DNA from: an uncultured bacterium
Lineage (GTDB): Bacteria > Eisenbacteria > RBG-16-71-46 > CAIMUX01 > WJJG01
Direction: 5' to 3'
Assembly: GCA_964482205.1 (NCBI GenBank)
Contig: CAYZWI010000007.1
Span: 25,740-89,739 of the forward strand
DNA length: 64,000 nucleotides
Shown: positions 2,610 to 12,773 of the stretch, in pieces
How positions within the stretch are numbered: position 1 is the first letter of the stretch
Layout of the letters: each line of letters opens with the position of its first letter
Notes under the pieces: model-generated
Database searches by the model: none
Told to the model about the DNA's origin: nothing
The model's input: only the letters and a program-made list of their open reading frames with translations
Translations under genes and position numbers: made by a program

Positions 2610-3656
2610 ATGACTGATGCCCCCCGCATCAGCATCCTCCTGCCCGCGCGGAATGCGGGAGGGTGCCTCGAGGAGGCCTTGCGCAGCCTCTCGGCGCAGA
2701 CGATCGCCGATTGGGAGTGCATCATCGTCGACGACGCCTCTTCCGATCGGACGCCCGCCGTCATCGCGCAATGGGCGGACGCGGACCCGCGCTTTCGTTC
2801 CATTCGTCTGCGCAGCCATCGCGGGATCGTCTTCGCGCTCAACCGCGCGGCCGAGGAGGCGCGCGCTCCCTGCCTGGCCCGCCAGGACGCCGACGACCGC
2901 TCGCTTCCCGAGCGGCTGGCCCGCTCGCTGGCCTTGCTCGAATCGGACGCGCGTCTCGGCGCCGTGGCGACCGGCGTGCGCTTCGTTCCCGCTCCGCAGC
3001 CGGGAAGCGGATGGGAGGCCTACGCCTGCTGGCTGAATGCCGCTCGCAGCGCCGAAGAAATCGAGCGCGAAATCTGGATCGAGAGTCCCCTTCCCCATCC
3101 GGCCGTGATCATGCGGCGCAAAGCGTTCGATCAAGCTGGCGGATATCGCGAGGTGCCCTGGCCCGAGGATTACGATTTGTGGCTGCGCATGCGGGCGAAG
3201 AAGTGGCGCTTCGCAAAGACGCCGGAGATCCTCTACGAATGGGCGCTCCACGAGGAACGCCTGACGCTCACCGATTCGCGCTATCTGCCCGCGGAATTCC
3301 TGGCGTGCAAGCTTCATCACTTGAGGATGCGGCTGCGCAAGCGGCCGGTGTTCATCTGGGGGGCGGGCAGAGACGGACGCCGGCTCGCGCGGGCGCTGAT
3401 CGCGCGCCGCATCGACCTCCGCGGATTCATCGACATCGATCCGCGCAAGATCGGCCGTTCGCGCCTCGGCAAGCCGGTGATCGGAGCCGACGATGCGCTC
3501 GACAGCCTGCATCCCCCTGATGCGCCCAACGTCCTGCGGCCCGGCGATGCGCTCCTGCTCGTCGCCGTCGGCACGCGCGGGGCGCGCGAGCTCATTCGCG
3601 CGCGCCTAGCCGGAAAGGGCTGGCGCGAGCCGGAGGACTTTCTCTGCCTGCATTGA
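2610..3656 (+). CDS. family 2 glycosyltransferase (GT-A fold)
   Basis: ISILLPARNAGGCLEEALRSLSAQT...ECIIVDDASSDRT is an N-terminal GT2 signature, and the downstream region is a conserved GT2 region. The gene is divergent from rnhA. Confidence 0.8.
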   Translation: MTDAPRISILLPARNAGGCLEEALRSLSAQTIADWECIIVDDASSDRTPAVIAQWADADPRFRSIRLRSHRGIVFALNRAAEEARAPCLARQDADDRSLPERLARSLALLESDARLGAVATGVRFVPAPQPGSGWEAYACWLNAARSAEEIEREIWIESPLPHPAVIMRRKAFDQAGGYREVPWPEDYDLWLRMRAKKWRFAKTPEILYEWALHEERLTLTDSRYLPAEFLACKLHHLRMRLRKRPVFIWGAGRDGRRLARALIARRIDLRGFIDIDPRKIGRSRLGKPVIGADDALDSLHPPDAPNVLRPGDALLLVAVGTRGARELIRARLAGKGWREPEDFLCLH

Positions 3657-3765
3657 GCAGGCGTGCGCTCCCCGGGCCGGTCGCGCTCGGGTTGGAGGTT
3701 GCCGCTGATCCGCCGATTTCCTACCATCGAGCCCGGATGATTCATAAAGCTCGTCGCGAGACAGC

Positions 3766-3874
3766 GGAGATGCCCGCAGATACAAGGCGCGCGCCGCGCC
3801 GCCGACGCAGGCGTACTCCGCAGTACGTCGAGGAGGCGGCGCCAGCGTAACGCAGGAGATGCGGGCAGATACGA
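3766..3874. repeat. two 19-nt near-identical motifs (GGAGATGC-CCG/GGG-CAGATAC) spaced about 90 bp apart, upstream of the AmmeMemo fusion gene
   Basis: ggagatgcccgcagataca at about 3766-3784 and ggagatgcgggcagatacg at about 3855-3874. The flanks are direct repeats and the GCCCGC core is inverted to GCGGGC in the second copy. Confidence 0.4.
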
Positions 3875-3933
3875 TGTCGCAGCAGAGATTTCATGAATCA
3901 TCCGGGCTAGGATCGGGAGCTGGGGAAAGAGCC

Positions 3934-5667
3934 ATGCGTCGTTCGAATCGTTTGTCCGCTTCATTTCTTCGTTCGGCGGCGTTCGCCTTCTTGCGCGCGG
4001 CTGCGCTTCTCGCGCTCGTTGCCGCGGCGGGCGACATCCAATGCGAGGCCCAACCGATGAACTCCATTCGTCCGAGCGCTCTGGCGGGCAGTTGGTACCC
4101 CGCCGATCCCGGCAAGCTGACGGCCGAGGTGGATGCGCATCTCGCCGCGGGCCAGGGGCTGGAGGCGATCGCCTTGCACCGCCCGATCGCGCTCATCGCG
4201 CCGCATGCGGGCCATCAATGGTCGGGAGATGCGGCCGGCCAGGCCTTTCGCTTGATCGAAGGCTCCGCCGGAAATGACATCACGCGCGTCATCCTGCTGG
4301 GGCCCTCGCACTATCAGGGCTTTCGAGGCGCTTCGGTTCCCGATGCCTCCGCCTTTGCCACGCCCCTGGGCAATGTGCCGGTCGATGTCGAGGTCGCCGC
4401 CGCGCTCGCGAGATCCCCCGGCTTCGTTTCCGCGCCCGCGGCCCACGCGCGCGAGCATTGCCTGGAGATCCAGCTGCCCTTCCTGCAGCGCGCCCTCGGT
4501 CATCCCTTCCGGATCGTCCCCGTGCTCGTCTCCTCTCTCGATCCGGCCGGCCGCGACGCGCTCGCGCGCACGCTCGCGCGCCATGTCGACGAGCACACGC
4601 TCCTCGTCGCGAGCTCCGACTTCACCCACTTCGGCGGACGCTTCGGGTACCTGCCCTTCGTGAGCGACAGCGCGGCGGCGCTCGATCGCGATCTGCGCTT
4701 GCTCGACAAGGGAGCGCTCGCGCCCATCCTCGCGCTCGACGCGGCGGCCCTCGACGCCTATCATGACGAGACGGACATCACCGTGTGCGGCATCCACCCG
4801 ATCGGGACCCTGATCCAAATCCTCTCGCAGCCCGATCTCCAGAAGGCGTGGAAGGGAACGCCACAGGGGCGCGTGCTCGACTACTATCGCTCGGCCGACT
4901 TGACGGGCGATTTCGACGGCTCGGTGAGCTACGCGGCGGTGGCGTTCTTCCGTCCCGGCGAGTTGAAGCCGGGAGCCGACTATCCGGAGAAGCTGGCGGC
5001 GGTGAAATTGGCGGGCGAGCGCGCCGGCGGGGCTTCTGCTTCCCGCGCATCCGCGCCCGATTCGTCCGATTCCGCCGCTTCCCCGATGCGATTGACGAAG
5101 GACGAAGAGCGTTTCCTGCTCGCGCTCGCGCGCGACACGGTCGAGCGTTTGACATCCGGGCGCAAGCCCGCGAAGGAAGTCTCGTTCCCGGCCGATGTGT
5201 CGGCCGAGAAGATGCGCACGCCCTGCGGCGCGTTCGTGACCTTGACCCGAAACGAGCGCCTGCGCGGTTGCATCGGCAGTCTCGCGGGCGACGAGCCGCT
5301 CTACGCGTGCGTGATCGCCAACGCCGGCAACGCGGCCATGCGCGATCCGCGCTTCTCTCCCGTGACGGCCAAGGAAGTGGACGGGCTGGCCATCGAGATC
5401 TCGGTGCTCACCCCGATGCGCGCGATCGCCGGGCCGGAGGAGATCGAGATCGGACGCCACGGAGTCGTATTGGAAAAGAGCGGCCATCGCGCGGTCTTCC
5501 TGCCGCAAGTCGCGCCCGAACAAGGGTGGGACCGCGACACGATGCTCGATCATCTCGCCGTCAAGGCGGGACTCGCCCCCGGCGATTGGCGCAGCGGAGC
5601 GCGCTTTCAGGTGTTCGAGGCGCTGGTCTTCTCCGAAGAGCGGGAAGGCGCGCCGGGCGGACGATGA
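3934..5667 (+). CDS. fusion of AmmeMemoRadiSam system protein B (MEMO1-like, N-terminal) and protein A (AMMECR1 domain, C-terminal), with a signal-peptide-like N-terminus
   Basis: MEMO motifs are present: GSWYPADPGKL, IAPHAGHQWSG, LLGPSHY, ASSDFTHFG. After a Ser/Ala-rich linker of about 50 aa comes the AMMECR1 core (PCGAFVTLTRNERLRGCIGS ... HGVVLEKSGHRAVFLPQVA). The start at the in-frame ATG 3934 (MRRSNRLSASFLRSAAFAFLRAAALLALVAAAG) has a ggggaaagag RBS. The ORF as given in the track begins at 3859. Confidence 0.8.
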   Translation: MRRSNRLSASFLRSAAFAFLRAAALLALVAAAGDIQCEAQPMNSIRPSALAGSWYPADPGKLTAEVDAHLAAGQGLEAIALHRPIALIAPHAGHQWSGDAAGQAFRLIEGSAGNDITRVILLGPSHYQGFRGASVPDASAFATPLGNVPVDVEVAAALARSPGFVSAPAAHAREHCLEIQLPFLQRALGHPFRIVPVLVSSLDPAGRDALARTLARHVDEHTLLVASSDFTHFGGRFGYLPFVSDSAAALDRDLRLLDKGALAPILALDAAALDAYHDETDITVCGIHPIGTLIQILSQPDLQKAWKGTPQGRVLDYYRSADLTGDFDGSVSYAAVAFFRPGELKPGADYPEKLAAVKLAGERAGGASASRASAPDSSDSAASPMRLTKDEERFLLALARDTVERLTSGRKPAKEVSFPADVSAEKMRTPCGAFVTLTRNERLRGCIGSLAGDEPLYACVIANAGNAAMRDPRFSPVTAKEVDGLAIEISVLTPMRAIAGPEEIEIGRHGVVLEKSGHRAVFLPQVAPEQGWDRDTMLDHLAVKAGLAPGDWRSGARFQVFEALVFSEEREGAPGGR

Positions 5668-6752
5668 TGGACCGGCGCCGGTTTCTTGCGCTCGGCAGCC
5701 GGGCGTTGATCGGCGGGATCGCCGCGCACGCGACCGGAAGCTTGGCGCACCCGCCGGCGCATGCGCAGCGGAGTTCGCGCGAGGGCGCAGCCGCAGGCAC
5801 AGCCGCCGGCGCGCTTGCGCAAGAGACAGCCGTTTCGCTCCCCGTACTCGACAAGCTCCAGGGACGGGCGACGGGACGGGTGGCCATCGCGCGCGATCTC
5901 ATTCCCGCCGGCCGCGCGCTCGCGAGCTCGAGCGACGCGCTGCCCGCCGAGCGCGTGCGTGAACGCCTCGAGGCCGCCATGCGGGCGCTGCTGGGCAACG
6001 ATCCCTGGCCGCAACTGGTCCGCCCCGACGATACCGTCGCGATCAAGATCAACGGGCTCGCGGCCGGACGGCTCTCGCCGCGGCCCGAGCTCGTCGAAGC
6101 GATCGCCCGCGCGCTGATCGCGGCCGGAGTGGCGCCGGGCCGCATCATCGTATGGGATCGAACCAGCCGTGAGGTGGAGGGCAGCGGATTTCCCCTGCAG
6201 ACCGCCGACGGCGCGGTGCGGCACTATGGGACCGACGCGCTGCGCGACGGATACGGCCGCGATCTCGAGACGAGCGGATCGGTGGGAAGTCTCGTCACGC
6301 GCATCCTGCGCGAGTACGCGACCGTGCTCGTGAATGTCGGCGTGTTGAAGGACCACGACTTGTGCGGCGTGTCGGCGGGCATGAAGAATCTCTACGGTGC
6401 GATTCACAATCCGAACCGCTACCACGCCAACGGATGCGATCCCTTCGTCGCCGAGGTAGCGGCCTTGCCGTCGATTCGCGCGCGCCTCGCGCTGACGGTG
6501 ATCGATGGTGCGATCGCGCAGGCCGAAGCGGGGCCCGCTTTCGCGCCGGCGTGGATCTGGCCGTGCGACGCATTGCTGGCCGCCTGCGATCCGGTGGCGT
6601 GCGATCGCGCCGCCTGGGGTCTGATCGAGGCGCGCCGCGGCGAGCTCGGGCTTCCCTCTCTCGCGGAAGCGGGCCGCGCGCCGCGCTGGATCGAGACCGG
6701 CGCGCGCCTGGGCCTCGGCCGCGCGGAAGGAATCGCGCGCGTGGAAGTGTGA
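5664..6752 (+). CDS. DUF362-family protein with a twin-arginine (Tat) signal peptide
   Basis: It starts MMDRRRFLALGSRALIGGIAAHATGSLAHPPAHA (RRxFLA Tat motif, AxA cleavage site). The ATG overlaps the upstream stop (ATGA). DUF362-like core blocks are present (VAIKINGLAAG ... GVLKDHDLCGVSAGMKNLYG ... LTVIDG). Confidence 0.7.
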   Translation: MMDRRRFLALGSRALIGGIAAHATGSLAHPPAHAQRSSREGAAAGTAAGALAQETAVSLPVLDKLQGRATGRVAIARDLIPAGRALASSSDALPAERVRERLEAAMRALLGNDPWPQLVRPDDTVAIKINGLAAGRLSPRPELVEAIARALIAAGVAPGRIIVWDRTSREVEGSGFPLQTADGAVRHYGTDALRDGYGRDLETSGSVGSLVTRILREYATVLVNVGVLKDHDLCGVSAGMKNLYGAIHNPNRYHANGCDPFVAEVAALPSIRARLALTVIDGAIAQAEAGPAFAPAWIWPCDALLAACDPVACDRAAWGLIEARRGELGLPSLAEAGRAPRWIETGARLGLGRAEGIARVEV

Positions 6753-6759
6753 GGACAAG

Positions 6760-7905
6760 ATGGACCGGCGGATTTTTCTGACGGCGTTGTCGGCGGGGCT
6801 CGCGGGCGGAACGCTCTTGCCCCGCATGTTGGGAGGCGAACTGTCCGCGCAGGACGCGGTCGACTTCGCGCTGCCCCAAGGCGACAGGCGCATCGGTCTC
6901 GCCCCCGCGCTGCATTACGAGAAAATCGCAGGAAAGAAGATCGTCTGCCGGCTCTGCCCGCGCGAGTGCCGCGTGGCCGCCTCCGAGCGCGGCTTCTGCG
7001 GCGTCCGCGAAAACCGGGACGGCGAGTACCTGACGCTGGTTCACGATCGCGCCAGCGCGGTCCACCTGGATCCCGTCGAGAAGAAGCCCTTCTTTCATGT
7101 GCTTCCCGGAGCGCAAGCGCTCTCGCTCGCAACGGCGGGCTGCAATTTCGAGTGCCGCTTCTGCCAGAACTGGGAGATCTCGCAGTCGCGCCCCGAACAG
7201 CTCGATTCGATGGAAGCGACGCCGGCCATGCTGCTCGACGGCGCGCGGCGCGTGGGCGCGCGCGCGATCGCCTACACCTATTCGGAGCCGACCGTCTTCT
7301 ACGAATACATGCTCGCCATCGCGCGCTACACGAGCGCGGCGGGCATTCCGAACCTGGTCGTCTCGAATGGATACATCCAGGAAAAGCCGCTGCGGGAGCT
7401 CGCTCCCCATCTGGCCGCTTACAAGGTGGACCTCAAAGCCTTCACCGAGGACTTCTATCGCGAACAGTGCAACGGCTCGCTCGCCCCCGTGCTCGCGACC
7501 CTGCGCACCTTGAAGTCCCTCGGACTGTGGACCGAAATCGTGACCCTCGTCATTCCCACCTTGAACGACGACGAGGCGAGCAACCGCGCAATGTGCGCCT
7601 GGATCCTGGAAAACCTGGGGCCGGATGTGCCCTTGCACTTCACGCGCTTCCATCCCACCTACAAGATCACGAACCTGCCGAGCACGCCCGCCGCCACGCT
7701 CGAGCGCCTGCGCGCGCTCGCACTCGAGAGCGGGCTGCACTATGTGTATGTGGGAAACCTTCCCGGTCACGCGGGCGAATCGACCTACTGCCCCGCGTGC
7801 GGGGAACGCGTGATCGAGCGGCACGGCTATCTGGTGGCCGAGGTGACACTGAAGGCAGGCCGCTGCCCGAAGTGCGCGACGGCGATTCCGGGCGTCTGGA
7901 GTTGA
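6760..7905 (+). CDS. AmmeMemoRadiSam system radical SAM enzyme (PFL-activase-like) with a Tat-type N-terminal signal
   Basis: CNFECRFCQNWEIS is the radical SAM CxxxCxxC motif. It is preceded by the family-typical CRLCPRECRV...ERGFCGVRE and DPVEKKPFFHV blocks. The N-terminus MDRRIFLTALSAGLAGGTLLP is a Tat motif. A GAGGA RBS lies 5 nt before the ATG. Confidence 0.85.
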   Translation: MDRRIFLTALSAGLAGGTLLPRMLGGELSAQDAVDFALPQGDRRIGLAPALHYEKIAGKKIVCRLCPRECRVAASERGFCGVRENRDGEYLTLVHDRASAVHLDPVEKKPFFHVLPGAQALSLATAGCNFECRFCQNWEISQSRPEQLDSMEATPAMLLDGARRVGARAIAYTYSEPTVFYEYMLAIARYTSAAGIPNLVVSNGYIQEKPLRELAPHLAAYKVDLKAFTEDFYREQCNGSLAPVLATLRTLKSLGLWTEIVTLVIPTLNDDEASNRAMCAWILENLGPDVPLHFTRFHPTYKITNLPSTPAATLERLRALALESGLHYVYVGNLPGHAGESTYCPACGERVIERHGYLVAEVTLKAGRCPKCATAIPGVWS

Positions 7906-7936
7906 GGCGCGCGCGTGGAATGCGCGCCCCAGGACA

Positions 7937-9007
7937 TCAGCTCTTTTCCGGCGCCGCCGCGGCCGCGCGGCCGAACGCCTCCCAGAAGGGATCGACGCGC
8001 GGATGCTCCAGCGCGACGCGGCGGCCTCCCTCGCGAATCCAGCAGCCCTTCTCTTCGGCCAGCACTTCTCCCACGATACCTACGGGGATGCCCGCCTCGC
8101 GAATGCGCCGCTCCACTTCCGCCGCTTTGTGCGGGCGCGCAGTCAGCAGCAGCGTCCCTTCGCTGATGGAAACGAAGGGATCGATGCCGAACATCTCGCA
8201 GATCTTCACGACCGGTTCCTGCGCCGGAATGCGCTCCTTCTCGACGATCATCCCCACCCGCGACGCGGAAGCGATTTCGGCGAGCCCTCCCCAGATTCCG
8301 CACTCGGTCGCGTCGTGCATCGCGGTCACGCCCTCGTCGCGCACTCCCACGCCCGCCGCGATGCGCGCCTCTTCCACCACGCTCATCTGCCAGAAGATCT
8401 CCTGGGCCTCGCGCGCGAAAGGTTCGCCGAAGCGTTCGGCGATCCGGCCGGGGAAGGTGGCCGCAAAGAGGCCGGCCGCTTCGATCGCCGGGCCCTTGGT
8501 GACGAGAATCGCATCTCCCGCCCGCGCCATCTCGGGCGTCACGTACGCGTCGCGCGGGCCGATCGCGATCACGGTCGCGCCTCCCACCATCGGATAGTCG
8601 CAGCCTTCGTACCGGCCGGTGTGTCCGGTGACGATCGCGACGCCCAGCCGCTCGCATTCCTCGTGCATCGTCTGCCACATGCGGGCGAATTCCTCGCCGG
8701 CGATGGAGCGCGGCAGATTGAGATCGATCGTCATGTAGGCCAAGGGCAGCCCCGATGTGGCGGCGTCCGAGCAGAGGATGTTGACCGCGAACCACGCCGA
8801 GCGTTCCCAGCCGTACGGGGGAACGATGAAGACCGGATCCGTGGTCACGGCCATTACCTGCCCGCCGCCGATCTCCACGATGCCGATGTCGACGCCGTGA
8901 CGCGGGCCCACGAGCACTTCCGGCCGACGCCGGCCGAGCCGCGGATAGATCACCTGATCGAAGACTTCCGCGGAGATCTTTCCGATTCGGGGAAGCTCAG
9001 CGTGCAT
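7937..9007 (-). CDS. AIR-synthase-related (PurM superfamily, HypE-like) protein of unknown function
   Basis: The PurM-like N-domain (GVDIGIVEIGGGQVMAVTTDPVFIVPPYGW ... AVNILCSDAATSGLPLAYMTIDLNLP) is followed by a C-domain. It lacks the C-terminal Cys of HypE proper. The third codon ATG was chosen as the start (GAGGAA RBS). The ORF as given in the track begins with TTG at 9013. Confidence 0.7.
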   Translation of the reverse strand: MHAELPRIGKISAEVFDQVIYPRLGRRRPEVLVGPRHGVDIGIVEIGGGQVMAVTTDPVFIVPPYGWERSAWFAVNILCSDAATSGLPLAYMTIDLNLPRSIAGEEFARMWQTMHEECERLGVAIVTGHTGRYEGCDYPMVGGATVIAIGPRDAYVTPEMARAGDAILVTKGPAIEAAGLFAATFPGRIAERFGEPFAREAQEIFWQMSVVEEARIAAGVGVRDEGVTAMHDATECGIWGGLAEIASASRVGMIVEKERIPAQEPVVKICEMFGIDPFVSISEGTLLLTARPHKAAEVERRIREAGIPVGIVGEVLAEEKGCWIREGGRRVALEHPRVDPFWEAFGRAAAAAPEKS

Positions 9008-9077
9008 GTGCAATTCCTCATCGCAAGCGATGCCCGTGCCGCCGCCTTGCGGACCAAACGTCCCCCTGCGGCGACCG

Positions 9078-11570
9078 TCACCGCGCGGGCGCTCCTCGCC
9101 CGCCGGGCAGGAGCCAGAGCGTTGCCGCGGTCAGCTTCACGCAAGCCAAGGCGAGCAGCGCGCCGGCAAAACCGAGCAAGGGAATGAAGAGAATACCAGT
9201 CAGCAACGCTCCAAGCAATGCGCCCGCGTGATCGGCCGCGTTGGCGCGCCCGCCCGCGCCGGCCGCGGTCGTGAGCGCGCGTTCGCGCACGCACTGCGCC
9301 ACGGCCGCGAAGGGCAGCGCGGTCAGGGCGCCCGCGAGAAACGCGAGAGCGAGCAGCGCCCCGGCGATTCCCGTTTGCGCGCAGGCGGGCATGAGGCGCA
9401 GGAAGGGAACCCAGGCGACGAGAAAGACGACCCAGGCGACATCGGCGGTGAAGATCACGCGCCGCATGCCGCCGTCGCCGGATGCGCTCGAGGCCGTGCG
9501 GCGCCTGGCGATCCAGCGCTCGCCCAGCAACCCTCCCGCGCCGAGGCCCATCATGTAGAGGGCGATCACGAGGCCGACTTCGAGATACAGCGTGCCTTTC
9601 AGGGTTTGATAGAGGAGAAGAACGATCAGGTCCGCTCCCATGCCCGCCATGCCGGTGGTGGCGAGGCTGACGAGCGGCGCGCCTCCGCCTCGCGACAAGA
9701 TCAAGCTCACGCACGCAAGCAGGAAGAGGACACCGATCGTCCAACGCCAGGGATGACGATGCCAGGCGTCCAAGAGCGCCGTCATGCGGCTCCCCGAGAA
9801 ACGGTCCCAGCGGCGGATCTCCTGGTAGTAGACGAACGGCCGCCCGTCGCGATTCTCCTCGACGCGCGCGGCCTGCCGCTCCATCTCCCCGGCCAGCGCG
9901 GCGACGCGTTCGGGAGGAAACTCGAGGGCGAAGAGCGCAGGCGGCCAGGAACGGATGCCCGGCAGGGCGCGCGCCCAGCGGGCCGCGAGGGTGTCGGGGT
10001 CCCAGGAGAGCGGCGTCGCGGCGGGGCTCGATCCGAGCGGGCGCGCGGCGAAGAAGAGCAGCGTCGTCCCCGGTGTGGCGCGCACATCGCCGAACACGCT
10101 CTTCAGCGCGGCGAAGATGGAGGCGCGCATCGCCGCCGTTTCGGGGCTGGCCACATTCGCCGACCCGGGCAGGCGCACGACGAACGCGCCCTCTTCCTTC
10201 ATCGCGGCCGCGCAGGAGGCGAAGAATTCGCGCGTGTACAACCGGTTGCTCGATCCGCTCTCGGGACCCGAGTGGAGCAGCGCGATGAGATCGAACCGTT
10301 CGGCGGCCGCAGCCGCGGGGCGCGCATCGCCAAGCGAGCAGACGAACGCACGCGGGTCGGCCGTCACGATTTGCGCCGGCGAAGAGGGATGCGCGAGCGG
10401 GGCCCGCTCATCGAGCCGCGGCTGCGCCAGGCGATCGACCATCGGGTCGGCTCGCACCAGCCTGATCGCGGGCGCGCCCCCGCGGGCGAGCTGCGCTTCG
10501 GCGAGCAGGCGCGCCGGCCCGATCATTCCGGGCGCGAAGAGGAGCATGCGTTGCGGCGATGGATGTTGGGTGACGACGAGCGCGGCGGCGAGACTATCGC
10601 TGTAGGGATCGCCCAACGCGCCCGCATAGAGCCCGTCCAGATAGAGAAAGGCCTCCCCTTCGCGCTCCGCGAGCGTGACTTGATGATAGGGAGTGGCTTC
10701 ATCAGCGACGATCGCCGTCCCCGTCTTCATCGCGCTCCAGCGCGCGTGAGACCAACACTGATCGAGACGCGCGGCGACGCCAGAGAGGAAGAGCAACGCG
10801 AGACCGAGAGCGCCGATCCAGGCAAGATGCCACTTCCATGAAGCGCGGACACGCGCGCCCTCGCGAGGAGTCGGTGCGCGCAGGCGAAGGAGGGCCAGCG
10901 GGAGCGCAACGGGAATCGCGCAGGCCGCGAGCAGAGCGACGGGGCTGATGCGGGAGAGCGCGTAGAGCGAAGCGAACGCGCCGCCCGCCATCGATCCGAG
11001 CGCCTCGATCGCATACGCGTTGCCCGGCGCGGGAGCCGGCGAGCGCAAGCCGACGGGAAAGAGAGCGCCGGTCATGAAGCCCGCCGGTCCGGCGGTGACG
11101 GCGAGAAGGAGGAGGTAGGCGGCAGCGGGCAGATACGCGCCCGAGGAAAGCGCGAGAACCAGACGATGATGGCGAAACAATCCGACCGCGATCAGCGCCC
11201 ACCACGCGAGCAGGACCCATCCGAGCCAGAAGATCTCTTCGCCTCGTTCGCGATCGCCCGCGCGCAAGGAGCCTGCGGCCTTCGTCGTCGCGGCGGACAC
11301 TCGTGGCCCGGAAGAAAGCGAGCGTGGCCGCGCCTCGTTCGAGCGATGCGCCGCGACCGCGGCGCCGGCGGCGATGGCTCCCAACCAGACGGCATAGAAG
11401 AGCCCCAGCGACACCTCTCCGCCGTGAAAGGCGAAGAGCGCCTCGCGCGCGAGCACCGTCTGGATGGTCAGCGACAGAAAGCCGAGCAGGAAGAAGCGCA
11501 GGATTCCGAGCGGGCGATGCAGCCTCTCGGCGCTGGGGCTGGGGCCGGCGCGCATCCGCGCGGAAAGCAA
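9078..11570 (-). CDS. membrane-embedded spermidine-synthase-like (polyamine aminopropyltransferase-like) protein with N- and C-terminal polytopic membrane domains
   Basis: The N-terminal multi-TM region (ILRFFLLGFLSLTIQTVLAREALFAFHGG...) is typical of fused membrane SpeE proteins. The central class-I MTase / aminopropyltransferase fold includes QVTLAEREGEAFLYLDG, RMLLFAPGMIGPARLLAEA and FDLIALLHSGPE. A second TM-rich region follows. The start is TTG at 11570 and is uncertain. It lies 12 nt downstream of the methyltransferase gene stop. Confidence 0.65.
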   Translation of the reverse strand: MLSARMRAGPSPSAERLHRPLGILRFFLLGFLSLTIQTVLAREALFAFHGGEVSLGLFYAVWLGAIAAGAAVAAHRSNEARPRSLSSGPRVSAATTKAAGSLRAGDRERGEEIFWLGWVLLAWWALIAVGLFRHHRLVLALSSGAYLPAAAYLLLLAVTAGPAGFMTGALFPVGLRSPAPAPGNAYAIEALGSMAGGAFASLYALSRISPVALLAACAIPVALPLALLRLRAPTPREGARVRASWKWHLAWIGALGLALLFLSGVAARLDQCWSHARWSAMKTGTAIVADEATPYHQVTLAEREGEAFLYLDGLYAGALGDPYSDSLAAALVVTQHPSPQRMLLFAPGMIGPARLLAEAQLARGGAPAIRLVRADPMVDRLAQPRLDERAPLAHPSSPAQIVTADPRAFVCSLGDARPAAAAAERFDLIALLHSGPESGSSNRLYTREFFASCAAAMKEEGAFVVRLPGSANVASPETAAMRASIFAALKSVFGDVRATPGTTLLFFAARPLGSSPAATPLSWDPDTLAARWARALPGIRSWPPALFALEFPPERVAALAGEMERQAARVEENRDGRPFVYYQEIRRWDRFSGSRMTALLDAWHRHPWRWTIGVLFLLACVSLILSRGGGAPLVSLATTGMAGMGADLIVLLLYQTLKGTLYLEVGLVIALYMMGLGAGGLLGERWIARRRTASSASGDGGMRRVIFTADVAWVVFLVAWVPFLRLMPACAQTGIAGALLALAFLAGALTALPFAAVAQCVRERALTTAAGAGGRANAADHAGALLGALLTGILFIPLLGFAGALLALACVKLTAATLWLLPGGRGAPAR

Positions 11571-11582
11571 GACCCGCTCCCG

Positions 11583-12773
11583 CTAGCGCCGGCCGCTTGC
11601 CGGCCGCCGGCGTGAGGGAGCAGGCGTCCGGCCCGCCGATGCCCCGGCCGTGGCCTTTCGCTTCGAGGCCGGCTGGGCGCGTTTCCTGGGAGGCGTGGCC
11701 GCCGCGCGCTTGCGCGGGCCGCTCGCTTTGCGTGCGAACAGTTCGCCGGGCCGGGACGTGGGCAGGCCGACGCCGATGCGCGCAGCCGCGCGGCACAGCT
11801 CTTCCAGGAGCGGCGCCGTCGCGGCGATCCTCTGGCTTCTCCGCATCTCCTCGGCAATGCGTTGCGCGGGCCATCCGCCTCCCGCCACGAAGCGAGCGTC
11901 CACGAATCCGGCCGCGTCCAGGTCCCGCAACCATTCCGCGGCGCGCGAGTGGCGCAGCGAGAAGACGCGCGCCTGCACGATCTCGCGCGATTCGATCGCC
12001 GTCACGGCCGCCGCCAGCCCGCGCTCCAGGCGAGGATCGCGATCGACCGATGCATGCGCGCCGCAACGCTGGGCGGAGCGCGCCAGGCGTTCGCGCCGCT
12101 CGCCGGTGGCCGGGCGCACCTCCAGGAGAAAGCCGCGCTCGCGCGCCCGCTCGCGCTCCACGATCCGGTACGCGATCGCAAAGCCGCCGTCGTCGTTCGC
12201 GCGAATCTCGATCCCCTCGCGCACCGGCTCGCTCTCCTCTTCCACGACTTCGTACGACAATCGCAAGGGCGCTCCCGGACGCAGGACGCGCTGGACTTCG
12301 CGCAGGGCGGCCAGCGGATCGGGAGTCTGCTCGAGCGAAAACGCCGCGACCGCGCCGTCGAAATGCTCGTCCGGAAAGGGCATCGCGCAAGCGCTCGCCT
12401 GCTCGAACGACGCGTTGCGCAGGCGCAGGCGTTCCGCGTTGGCGCGGCAGGCGGCGATTCTGCGAGGGCCCGGCTCGATGCCCACCACTTCCTCGACCTG
12501 CGGCGCCAGCAGCAGCGCGGGCCATCCGTCTCCCGGCCCCACATCGAGAATGCGGCGCGCCCCTGCGAGAGAGAGCAGATAGTCCTGCACCAGTCCGAGG
12601 GCCTGCCAGTGCGCGGGATCCGCGGCATCGGGCATGAGATGAATGCCCGGCCGCGCGGGGGGTGCGCAGATCTCCATGCGCTCGTAGCGAACGGTGGCCG
12701 AATCGGAAACGGCCGGCCGCGCGTGATCCATCAGCCACTCGAGGATTCCACTGGGACTCGTTTCGCGCGCCAT
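11583..12773 (-). CDS. class I SAM-dependent methyltransferase with a basic Pro/Arg/Lys-rich C-terminal tail
   Basis: Motif I is ILDVGPGDGWPALLLA. The post-I and motif II/III region (FDGAVAAFSLEQTPDP ... VLRPGAPLRLSY) is present. It is the first gene of a minus-strand three-gene operon. Confidence 0.65.
   Translation of the reverse strand: MARETSPSGILEWLMDHARPAVSDSATVRYERMEICAPPARPGIHLMPDAADPAHWQALGLVQDYLLSLAGARRILDVGPGDGWPALLLAPQVEEVVGIEPGPRRIAACRANAERLRLRNASFEQASACAMPFPDEHFDGAVAAFSLEQTPDPLAALREVQRVLRPGAPLRLSYEVVEEESEPVREGIEIRANDDGGFAIAYRIVERERARERGFLLEVRPATGERRERLARSAQRCGAHASVDRDPRLERGLAAAVTAIESREIVQARVFSLRHSRAAEWLRDLDAAGFVDARFVAGGGWPAQRIAEEMRRSQRIAATAPLLEELCRAAARIGVGLPTSRPGELFARKASGPRKRAAATPPRKRAQPASKRKATAGASAGRTPAPSRRRPASGRR

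Follow-up and report, generated by a model that had tools for sequence, protein, structure and literature searches.

The AmmeMemoRadiSam system is defined by three protein families, AMMECR1 (A; TIGR04335), Memo (B; TIGR04336) and a radical S-adenosylmethionine (SAM) enzyme (TIGR04337). The Memo and AMMECR1 families are conserved up to humans and are linked to disease, and their biochemical function is unknown. Papers that name AmmeMemoRadiSam in the searchable literature list the name and nothing more. Because SAM, reductants of the flavodoxin type and the assembly of iron–sulfur (Fe–S) clusters are all located in the cytoplasm, radical SAM enzymes are assumed to reside there as well. Here, we describe the AmmeMemoRadiSam gene set at positions 3934–7905 of a 64-kb stretch of DNA from an uncultured bacterium of the Eisenbacteria; this whole stretch is called the window. 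As in the canonical system, all three components are encoded together, and the CX3CX2C motif, the auxiliary cysteines, the Memo metal-site motifs and the LRGCIG motif are intact. In contrast to the canonical system, B and A are fused, every protein carries a predicted leader for the twin-arginine translocation (Tat) or the general secretory (Sec) pathway, a DUF362 gene is inserted, and a spermidine-synthase-like membrane protein is encoded nearby. The system is an AmmeMemoRadiSam member by every curated test and differs in its location signals, the fusion, the optional DUF362 gene and the membrane partner. Sequence conservation of the leaders suggests that a variant of AmmeMemoRadiSam, conserved across many phyla, probably acts outside the cytoplasm.

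The gene set is complete within this segment, and its three genes run in the same direction and overlap or nearly abut. Its features are as follows.

3934..5667, + strand: gene for the Memo (B) and AMMECR1 (A) fusion, 577 residues (TIGR04336, TIGR04335, PF01875, PF01871)
about 4069–4947 and about 5113–5631, + strand: Memo part and AMMECR1 part of the fusion, with a Ser/Ala linker between them
3934..4032, + strand: predicted Sec-type signal peptide of the fusion, an Arg-rich N-terminal (n) region followed by AAALLALVAAAG, read directly from the sequence
5664..6752, + strand: DUF362 gene (PF04015), with a LarA-like fold in the model of its product
5664..5765, + strand: twin-arginine leader of the DUF362 protein, DRRRFLAL ... 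AHA-Q (here and below, the final hyphen marks the putative cleavage site)
6760..7905, + strand: radical SAM gene (TIGR04337, PF04055)
6760..6849, + strand: twin-arginine leader of the radical SAM protein, 30 residues, MDRRIFLTAL ... LSA-QD

The open reading frame (ORF) of the fusion runs from ATG 3934 to TGA 5665–5667. TIGR04336 matches residues 46–338 with 208.3 bits against a cut-off of 26, TIGR04335 matches residues 394–566 with 161.3 bits against a cut-off of 99, and both PF01875 and PF01871 of Pfam match as well. The linker between the two domains is rich in Ser and Ala (GGASASRASAPDSSDSAASP), and the fusion retains every motif expected of Memo (PHAG, GPSH, SDFTH and VCG) and of AMMECR1 (LRGCIG). 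The closest solved relatives in PDB are human MEMO1 (7kq8) and archaeal AMMECR1-like proteins (1zq7, 1vaj). A first-pass annotation, made from the sequence alone, had described a fusion of 578 residues with MEMO ahead of AMMECR1; the order and the linker hold, and the length is 577 residues. That annotation had also taken the fusion for a local peculiarity, which it is not, because all 120 best matches to it are B–A fusions too. The radical SAM protein scores 379.8 bits with TIGR04337 (cut-off 220), in an alignment that begins only at residue 52, and 69.2 bits with PF04055. The DUF362 protein scores 70.8 bits with PF04015 (gathering score 24) over profile positions 1–198 of 200. All three ORFs therefore belong to the families first assigned to them, although the Pfam accession given for DUF362, PF04187, was wrong and has to be replaced by PF04015. 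Because the AmmeMemoRadiSam cut-offs are all passed, this is not a new kind of system. The overlap between the DUF362 start and the fusion stop that had been pointed out is also real: ATG 5664–5666 overlaps TGA 5665–5667 (ATGA), and a second ATG lies at 5667. A promoter and terminator scan of 3400–9200 gave nothing exceeding the shuffled expectation. Proteins identical to those of the window occur on NCBI contigs as long as 740 kb, where the annotation is simply AmmeMemoRadiSam.

The leader of the radical SAM protein reads MDRRIFLTALSAGLAGGTLLPRMLGGELSA up to the putative cleavage site and QD after it, and that of the DUF362 protein reads MMDRRRFLALGSRALIGGIAAHATGSLAHPPAHA and then QR; both sites were placed by inspection. 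Each leader contains a motif like the Tat consensus (S/T)-R-R-x-F-L-K, namely D-R-R-I-F-L-T in the radical SAM protein and D-R-R-R-F-L-A in the DUF362 protein, and ends in a C-terminal region (LSA-QD and AHA-QR, respectively, by inspection) before the mature part. An AlphaFold model of the radical SAM protein (predicted local distance difference test score, pLDDT, 89.7) has a helical N-terminus, low confidence at residues 16–43 and a confident core from about residue 48. When read from ATG 3934, the fusion begins with MRRSNRLSASFLRSAAFAFLRAAALLALVAAAG, the n-region of the window copy being long and Arg-rich. The alternative starts are ATG 3859, 3934 and 4057. The NCBI protein MBP6875913.1 has the 577-residue start, and other gene callers use Met42, which gives 536 residues. 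Met42 (window position 4057) lies directly before the Memo domain and is conserved across the Eisenbacteria, and many gene callers start there. Because this conserved Met follows the Eisenbacteria leader, several callers shorten the fusion to 536 residues, and database entries built on such calls lack the B–A leader and with it the export signal. Translation may also begin internally at Met42 and yield a cytoplasmic isoform of the fusion.

The leaders are conserved among homologues of all three proteins. An RR pair lies near the N-terminus of the radical SAM homologue in 105 of the 120 closest clusters, and the leader logo has S, D or T at −1, followed by R, R, x, F (78/105) and L (67/105). 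The pattern [STDNGKHQEM]RRx[FL][LIVMFAC] within the first 45 residues is matched by 96/120 of these homologues, compared with 5/1802 (0.3%) of unrelated ORFs from the same loci, for which a slightly narrower control pattern was used ([STDNG]RRx[FL][LIVM] within the first 40 residues). DUF362 homologues have an [RK]R leader motif in 97/120 cases and a strict RR in 91/120, with the logo (S/T/D)-R-R-x-F-L, and most of those lacking the motif appear truncated by eye. The mean hydropathy of the hydrophobic (h) region is Tat-like in the DUF362 leaders (1.80), and the mean maximum hydropathy of the B–A leaders is Sec-like (2.86). Nearly all full-length proteins among the best 120 matches to the fusion begin with a hydrophobic, often lipoprotein-like leader, and in the Eisenbacteria homologues a conserved N[CS]EA motif comes after this leader. 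Thus, the Tat-type motifs first seen on the DUF362 and radical SAM proteins are conserved across phyla, and the Sec-like N-terminus proposed for the fusion from ATG 3934 is conserved in the Eisenbacteria.

Leaders of this kind could arise as an artefact of mis-called starts and chance RR motifs, the real proteins beginning downstream. The start of the fusion at Met42 in several gene calls fits such an explanation, and high-GC genomes yield long spurious upstream ORF extensions. However, the leaders are conserved at the protein level in orthologues across phyla, and therefore the true starts do not lie downstream of the RR motifs. The radical SAM ATG at 6760 lies 7 nucleotides (nt) past the DUF362 stop, with a Shine–Dalgarno-like GAGGA 5 nt upstream, and the motif frequency among the control ORFs is only 0.3%. 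An artefact is extremely improbable.

One genome per GTDB species was scanned with the radical SAM alignment, which yielded 80 loci from Acidobacteriota, Planctomycetota, Omnitrophota, KSB1, Zixibacteria, Desulfobacterota, Verrucomicrobiota, Elusimicrobia, Chlamydiae, archaea and others. A hidden Markov model (HMM) was built for each family, and the leader types were assigned by eye. About 53 of the radical SAM proteins have a Tat-type (RR) leader, 16 have a Sec-type leader (for example, MKKSLLLLILLLSVLFPAIGA followed by DQ after the site) and about 10 have none. The mean hydropathy of the h-region is 1.88 in the Tat-type leaders and 3.19 in the Sec-type leaders (p = 2e-9), and a lower hydropathy of the h-region in Tat than in Sec signals is an established difference. 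All 38 B–A fusions in the 80 loci adjoin a leader-bearing radical SAM enzyme or a close relative, and every fusion with a readable N-terminus has a hydrophobic leader of its own. In a neighbour-joining tree, the leaderless radical SAM proteins form a separate basal clade, and those linked to DUF362, including that of the window, form one clade. Independent gene calls with precomputed Pfam matches reproduce the cassette.

The same leaders might act as uncleaved signal anchors, which would give a membrane-tethered complex on the periplasmic face, similar to Rieske proteins, and not soluble periplasmic proteins. The conserved association with a large membrane protein (see below), the fusion of relatives to membrane modules (DsbD_2, NapH-like) and the long h-region of the B–A fusion are in line with anchoring, as is the Leu at −3 of the radical SAM site in the window, which makes this site only moderately favourable. 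However, most radical SAM orthologues have clear AxA-type sites, such as AHA-QD and ASA-QD, and the conserved mature N-terminus QDA[IV]DF follows directly after them. In addition, Tat-type leaders have short h-regions of low hydrophobicity (mean hydropathy 1.88, as above). Uncleaved anchors are unlikely.

The genes beside the radical SAM gene co-vary with the leader type. A membrane protein of the DsbD_2 family (PF13386) is found beside 14/16 Sec-type loci and 0/53 Tat-type loci (p = 8e-13), and in the loci L054 and L066 it is fused to FMN_bind and Fer4_5 domains. DUF362 is found beside 22/53 Tat-type loci, plus the window, and 0/16 Sec-type loci (p = 6e-4). In the radical SAM enzyme, the cysteines of the CX3CX2C motif (C128, C132 and C135) are invariant, and further cysteine motifs are present on the N-terminal side (CX2CX3CX9C) and on the C-terminal side (CX2C...CX2C). 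All 11 cluster-ligating cysteines are kept in the Sec-type enzymes too. The simplest reading is that a radical SAM enzyme which has eleven essential cysteines and is exported unfolded needs reducing equivalents outside, and that one exported folded does not.

The RR leaders could also be vestigial or serve a purpose other than export, such as chaperone binding, cofactor quality control or association with the cytoplasmic side of the membrane, the enzyme staying inside. Remnant Tat motifs on proteins that are not exported are known, as in NarG, and SAM and reductant would then not have to be delivered outside the cell. The leaderless AMMECR1 proteins beside the Tat-leader radical SAM enzymes of L033 and L045 would fit as well. 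However, leaders without a role in export are hard to reconcile with accessory genes that co-vary with the leader type. Furthermore, the full tripartite design is kept (motif, h-region and small residues at −3/−1), other lineages swap in classical Sec signal peptides rather than losing the leader, and the partner B–A proteins have Sec or lipoprotein-like leaders. The positive charges N-terminal of the h-region predict an outward passenger domain, and the leaderless enzymes form their own clade. Retention of the enzyme in the cytoplasm is therefore quite unlikely.

Relatives of the radical SAM enzyme occur in several natural fusions, which likewise speak for a location outside the cytoplasm. 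In one single chain (P0403), a Sec-type leader is followed by Memo, AMMECR1 and the radical SAM domain, and in another (P0412), an N-terminal anchor is followed by radical SAM, Memo and AMMECR1. Cytoplasmic triple fusions of about 1000–1150 residues have the opposite order, radical SAM–AMMECR1–Memo. In two relatives (P0389, P0404), a single hydrophobic segment at the N-terminus precedes an FMN_bind domain that carries the SGAT flavinylation motif; the radical SAM domain comes next, and no transmembrane segment separates it from FMN_bind. A leader followed by a CBM_11 domain (P0382) or by a beta-propeller (P0377) precedes the radical SAM domain in others, DsbD_2 precedes it in P0384 and P0402, and P0376, P0378 and P0387 combine radical SAM with NapH-like Fer4_5 membrane parts. 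Radical SAM clusters are usually reduced by flavodoxin, and a tethered flavin mononucleotide (FMN) domain would therefore be a natural replacement for it outside the cell. FMN_bind (PF04205) domains, which receive their flavin from ApbE, transfer electrons on the extracytosolic side, and NapH-like proteins with an N-terminal FMN_bind domain have been described as modular devices with mostly unknown client reactions (PMC8238504). Radical SAM, Memo and AMMECR1 are not mentioned in that paper. No FMN_bind, Fer4_5 or DsbD_2 module is present in the window, where no electron-supply gene is visible for the operon. As a separate observation, the Tat-leader radical SAM orthologues of L059 (4102–5359; Ignavibacteriaceae) and L075 (7658–8963; deltaproteobacterial) have a conserved CxxCH insert (GCADCH and NCGTCH, respectively) just ahead of the first cysteine motif. 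This insert may be a site for covalent haem c, which could be matured only outside the cytoplasm.

It is also conceivable that the radical SAM step takes place in the cytoplasm, where the enzyme would modify DUF362 or another client and then be co-exported with it via Tat as a spent escort. SAM, flavodoxin and Fe–S assembly are all cytoplasmic, and DUF362 proteins without a leader beside Tat-leader radical SAM genes in L012, L015 and L038 could travel in this way. The Tat pathway exports folded complexes and permits hitch-hiking (PMC10924467), and the known radical SAM maturases of periplasmic proteins, such as that of the HXS system, work in the cytoplasm (PMC13128918). However, the obligatory Memo–AMMECR1 partners have Sec-type leaders and hence fold only after export, and radical SAM enzymes with a Sec leader (16 loci) cannot be in a folded, active state prior to export. 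Most loci, including L087 of the Eisenbacteria, are without DUF362, and the adjacent or fused DsbD_2 and FMN_bind modules make sense only if the enzyme needs electrons outside. A radical SAM step completed in the cytoplasm is rather unlikely.

Cofactor-loaded export, a membrane-tethered complex and a non-canonical use of RR leaders were the readings offered at first pass, and the first of them is best supported. In this explanation, in which the leader-bearing AmmeMemoRadiSam acts outside the cytoplasm, the radical SAM enzyme would acquire its Fe–S clusters in the cytoplasm and be exported folded via Tat. The DUF362 protein with its LarA fold would likewise be loaded with a cofactor and exported folded via Tat, and the Memo–AMMECR1 fusion would be exported unfolded via Sec. 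The leaders would probably be cleaved, at sites read in all three proteins as having small residues at −3 and −1. The three proteins would then co-operate at the outer face of the cytoplasmic membrane, beside the membrane protein with an outward spermidine-synthase-like domain. Their substrate might be an envelope- or membrane-associated molecule such as a lipid, an isoprenoid or a glycan. SAM might be supplied through the spermidine-synthase-like membrane protein, which is of the size of a transporter, and electrons in relatives might come from DsbD_2, NapH-like or FMN_bind modules in a quinol- or thiol-linked manner. The sequences themselves document the family membership, the conserved leaders, the co-varying neighbours and the domain fusions; export, cleavage and joint action are inferred from them.

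These ideas can be joined into a wider and more doubtful proposal, which is put forward only tentatively and as a whole. Radical SAM catalysis would take place outside the cytoplasm in a large clade spanning many phyla and would be served by dedicated supply lines. The membrane protein would import SAM by means of an outward SAM-binding domain, and DsbD_2, NapH-like or flavinylated FMN_bind modules would be the periplasmic equivalent of flavodoxin. The lineages with a Sec leader would assemble the three Fe–S/Cys sites after export, and Memo–AMMECR1 would act on an envelope lipid, isoprenoid or glycan.

Several points weigh against catalysis outside the cytoplasm. We know of no route by which the periplasm would receive SAM or a reductant with a potential of about −450 mV. 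A Sec-leader radical SAM enzyme with 11 cysteines implies that Fe–S clusters are assembled outside the cytoplasm, and we know of no mechanism for this. Because the 80 loci are those relatives that score best with the query, their leader fractions are biased and are not values for the whole family. An unbiased HMMER pass over 1.84 billion representatives, with the radical SAM core stripped of its leader as query, gave 1503 relatives at E <= 1e-30; among the best 150 of these 1503 (50%-identity representatives), about 30% bear a leader or are fused to a membrane part, and about half are stand-alone radical SAM proteins with no leader. Stand-alone AMMECR1 has no leader beside the Tat-leader enzymes of L033 and L045 (Thermodesulfobacteriota/Syntrophobacterales), and DUF362 has no leader of its own beside those of L012, L015 and L038; such leaderless partners may reflect either Tat hitch-hiking or a step inside the cytoplasm. 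The charges flanking the hydrophobic segment of P0389 and P0404 are ambiguous for orientation. The number of transmembrane segments in P0378 and P0387 is ambiguous in a crude scan, and the radical SAM domain could lie inside there. Finally, the canonical GGG, ELD and DxxDP motifs are lost in the spermidine-synthase-like protein of the window.

The DUF362 protein recalls a family of cofactor-dependent enzymes. Its AlphaFold model (pLDDT 89.8) finds its best PDB folds with Foldseek in LarA-type nickel-pincer racemases (9q3k, 9eia and 7s91; E 2e-6 to 1.6e-4, TM-score 0.34–0.41). All of the top 10 matches are LarA-type or related, and 9 of them have E 2e-6 to 2.6e-4 (<= 0.001) with a probability of 1.00. 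DUF362 and LarA (DUF2088) are in the common Pfam clan CL0471 (PMC11770544). However, the likeness to LarA/DUF2088 is distant (12–18% identity, TM-score about 0.34–0.41), and the LarA enzymes are cytoplasmic. The NCBIfam model NPN_racem_MAR gives just 15.4 bits against a cut-off of 500, and an assignment as a LarA racemase was rejected. The block KDHD...MKN...IHNPN...H...C is strongly conserved, and the residues K128, K229, H231, K241, H248 and H254 are invariant. The block may bind a LarA-like cofactor, and such a cofactor would give a reason for the use of Tat. The association of DUF362 with the system, proposed from the window, recurs next to the radical SAM gene in 22/80 genome loci, and independent gene calls show it in additional loci. 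However, the Eisenbacteria locus L087 is without DUF362, and therefore this inserted partner is an optional accessory even inside the Eisenbacteria. The leaderless DUF362 proteins described above are compatible with hitch-hiking as a complex with the Tat-leader radical SAM enzyme.

Other features lie downstream and upstream of the operon.

9078..11570, − strand: polytopic membrane protein of 825–830 residues with a central spermidine-synthase-like domain, assigned by a family HMM
11583..12773, − strand: class I (UbiE-like) methyltransferase, assigned by Pfam methyltransferase domains
3730..3908, strand not given: long imperfect intergenic hairpin with 19-nt inverted arms and an 18-nt direct pair

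Clustering of the ORFs of all loci revealed a family of polytopic membrane proteins of 700–830 residues with a central spermidine-synthase-like domain. This conserved partner had been overlooked at first pass: the protein encoded at 9078–11570 scores 641 bits with the HMM of the family, and its homologues lie beside the radical SAM gene, often convergently, in 43/80 loci and in 0/8 clearly leaderless loci. Homologues carry PF01564 in independent gene calls. The window protein itself has no Pfam match and scores 15.2 with NF037959 (cut-off 40) and 56.4 with NF002956 (cut-off 472). It was therefore not assigned as a fused major facilitator superfamily (MFS)/spermidine synthase or as a polyamine aminopropyltransferase, the cut-offs being missed and the motifs degenerate. 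Most homologues keep GGG, ELDP, DGR and PDP...NRFYTxEFF, whereas the window protein has APG for GGG, RADP for ELDP, DPR for DGR and HSGPES for PDP. Because of these degenerate motifs, the window copy may not bind SAM or decarboxylated SAM. By a crude positive-inside count, the soluble domain lies on the Lys- and Arg-poor side in 25/32 proteins, which does no more than suggest that it faces outside. A search of the literature on fused MFS/spermidine synthases found nothing.

Gene order in the Eisenbacteria is conserved on both strands. One strand carries RNase H, B–A, the optional DUF362 and radical SAM genes, and the opposite strand carries, convergently, the genes for the membrane protein, the UbiE-like methyltransferase and then an N6/N4 DNA methylase. 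The methyltransferase gene occurs in the same order in L081 and L087–L089 and is not conserved outside the Eisenbacteria, and therefore the membership of the 11583–12773 gene in the system is uncertain. Between the radical SAM gene and the membrane protein gene lies an AIR-synthase-family gene (7937–9013, − strand) with PF00586 and PF02769 and with similarity to thiL, hypE and selD below the cut-offs. It is peculiar to this organism, being absent from L087–L089 and all other loci, and was rejected as a member of the system. The GT2 glycosyltransferase gene upstream (2610–3656) was likewise rejected, because it is conserved in no related locus. This gene is intact in the window, and L087 keeps about 35 of its C-terminal codons, ending in VAVGSRGARELMRERLALRGWSEPEHYLCLH and the stop codon, in unannotated intergenic DNA (5701–5862). 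In Acidobacteriota and related lineages (L086:8205–13728, L005, L016, L022 and L028), the cassette is extended by one or two divergent DUF362 paralogues and a DUF6599 lipoprotein, and in three of these extended cassettes a NapH-like Fer4_5 membrane protein lies beside the spermidine-synthase-like gene.

The two 19-nt repeats that had been reported just upstream of the operon are present, but they are arms of a strain-specific hairpin and not a conserved part of the system. They form an inverted pair (3730–3748 and 3890–3908; 18/19 complementary), and an 18-nt direct pair, GGAGATGCSSGCAGATAC, lies at 3766 and 3855; both pairs are unique in the window. Together, the repeats form one hairpin of about 180 nt, which separates the GT2 and B–A genes and has the 19-nt repeats as its outer arms, and the region 3700–3940 folds with −118.8 kcal/mol (z = −6.8). 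Because the hairpin covers ATG 3859, ATG 3934 is favoured as the start of the fusion. Each outer arm contains a near-palindrome, ATGAWTCAT. These boxes are absent from the orthologous Eisenbacteria loci L087–L089, where the intergenic region differs, and an Rfam search of 3400–4200 for riboswitches and known RNAs gave no match at E <= 1. Because the hairpin and its boxes are absent from the orthologous loci, they were dropped as a regulatory element of the system. The hairpin is probably strain-specific and outside the conserved system, and could represent either a small insertion or a regulatory site particular to this strain.

To specialists, an entire clade of radical SAM enzymes that are apparently exported would come as a surprise. 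The assumption that these enzymes are cytoplasmic is challenged by a conserved clade with Tat or Sec leaders, secreted partners and co-evolving genes for transmembrane electron transfer, and the question arises how SAM and electrons would be supplied in the periplasm. The exported version would narrow the candidate substrates of Memo and AMMECR1 to molecules accessible in the envelope, and the natural fusions and partners, namely DUF362, the spermidine-synthase-like membrane protein and FMN_bind, offer handles on the function of both families. No leader-bearing AmmeMemoRadiSam and no radical SAM enzyme with a Tat signal is described in the searchable literature, although a prior mention in comparative work on the genomic context of Memo is possible. 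No TatA-like motif is present in the 64-kb window, which is uninformative for a window of this size.

Among enzymes of known structure, the pyruvate formate-lyase (PFL)-activating enzyme (3cb8/8fo0) has the closest fold to the radical SAM core (Foldseek E = 1e-13, TM-score 0.77–0.81 on the target), and a sequence search of PDB found no solved relative of either the radical SAM or the DUF362 protein. The PFL-activating enzyme is similar in fold alone, being cytoplasmic and leaderless, whereas the enzyme described here adds N- and C-terminal cysteine motifs, and its locus shows no glycyl-radical enzyme partner. Scores with the glycyl-radical activase models TIGR02493 (31.7 against 232), TIGR02494 (36.8 against 174) and TIGR04041 (50.3 against 250) are far below the cut-offs, and an assignment as such an activase was rejected.

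In its leader, the radical SAM enzyme resembles the Fe–S proteins exported by Tat, such as hydrogenase small subunits, ferredoxins of the NapG/NrfC/DmsB type, Rieske proteins and high-potential iron–sulfur proteins (HiPIP), which likewise have an (S/T)RRxFL leader, a weak h-region and an AxA-type site. Their cofactor is loaded in the cytoplasm and the folded protein is exported, and the same logic is proposed for the radical SAM enzyme. However, those proteins are electron carriers, whereas a radical SAM enzyme needs SAM as a co-substrate and a donor of very low potential. We know of no radical SAM enzyme that is an established substrate of Tat. In its relatives, the enzyme is fused or adjacent to FMN_bind (PF04205), Fer4_5 (PF12801) and DsbD_2 (PF13386), the modules of the ApbE-flavinylated systems that include NosR, PceC, NapH-like proteins and DsbD, and these modules have been proposed to carry electrons to extracytosolic enzymes (PMC8238504). 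The radical SAM maturases of exported proteins, anSME/AtsB, QhpD and the HXS enzyme, likewise tie radical SAM chemistry to the periplasm. In anSME/AtsB and QhpD, the export signal is on the substrate and the radical SAM enzyme is cytoplasmic. In the HXS system, the substrate also has the export signal and the radical SAM enzyme stays in the cytoplasm (PMC13128918). Unlike these maturases, the radical SAM enzyme of the window carries the export signal itself.

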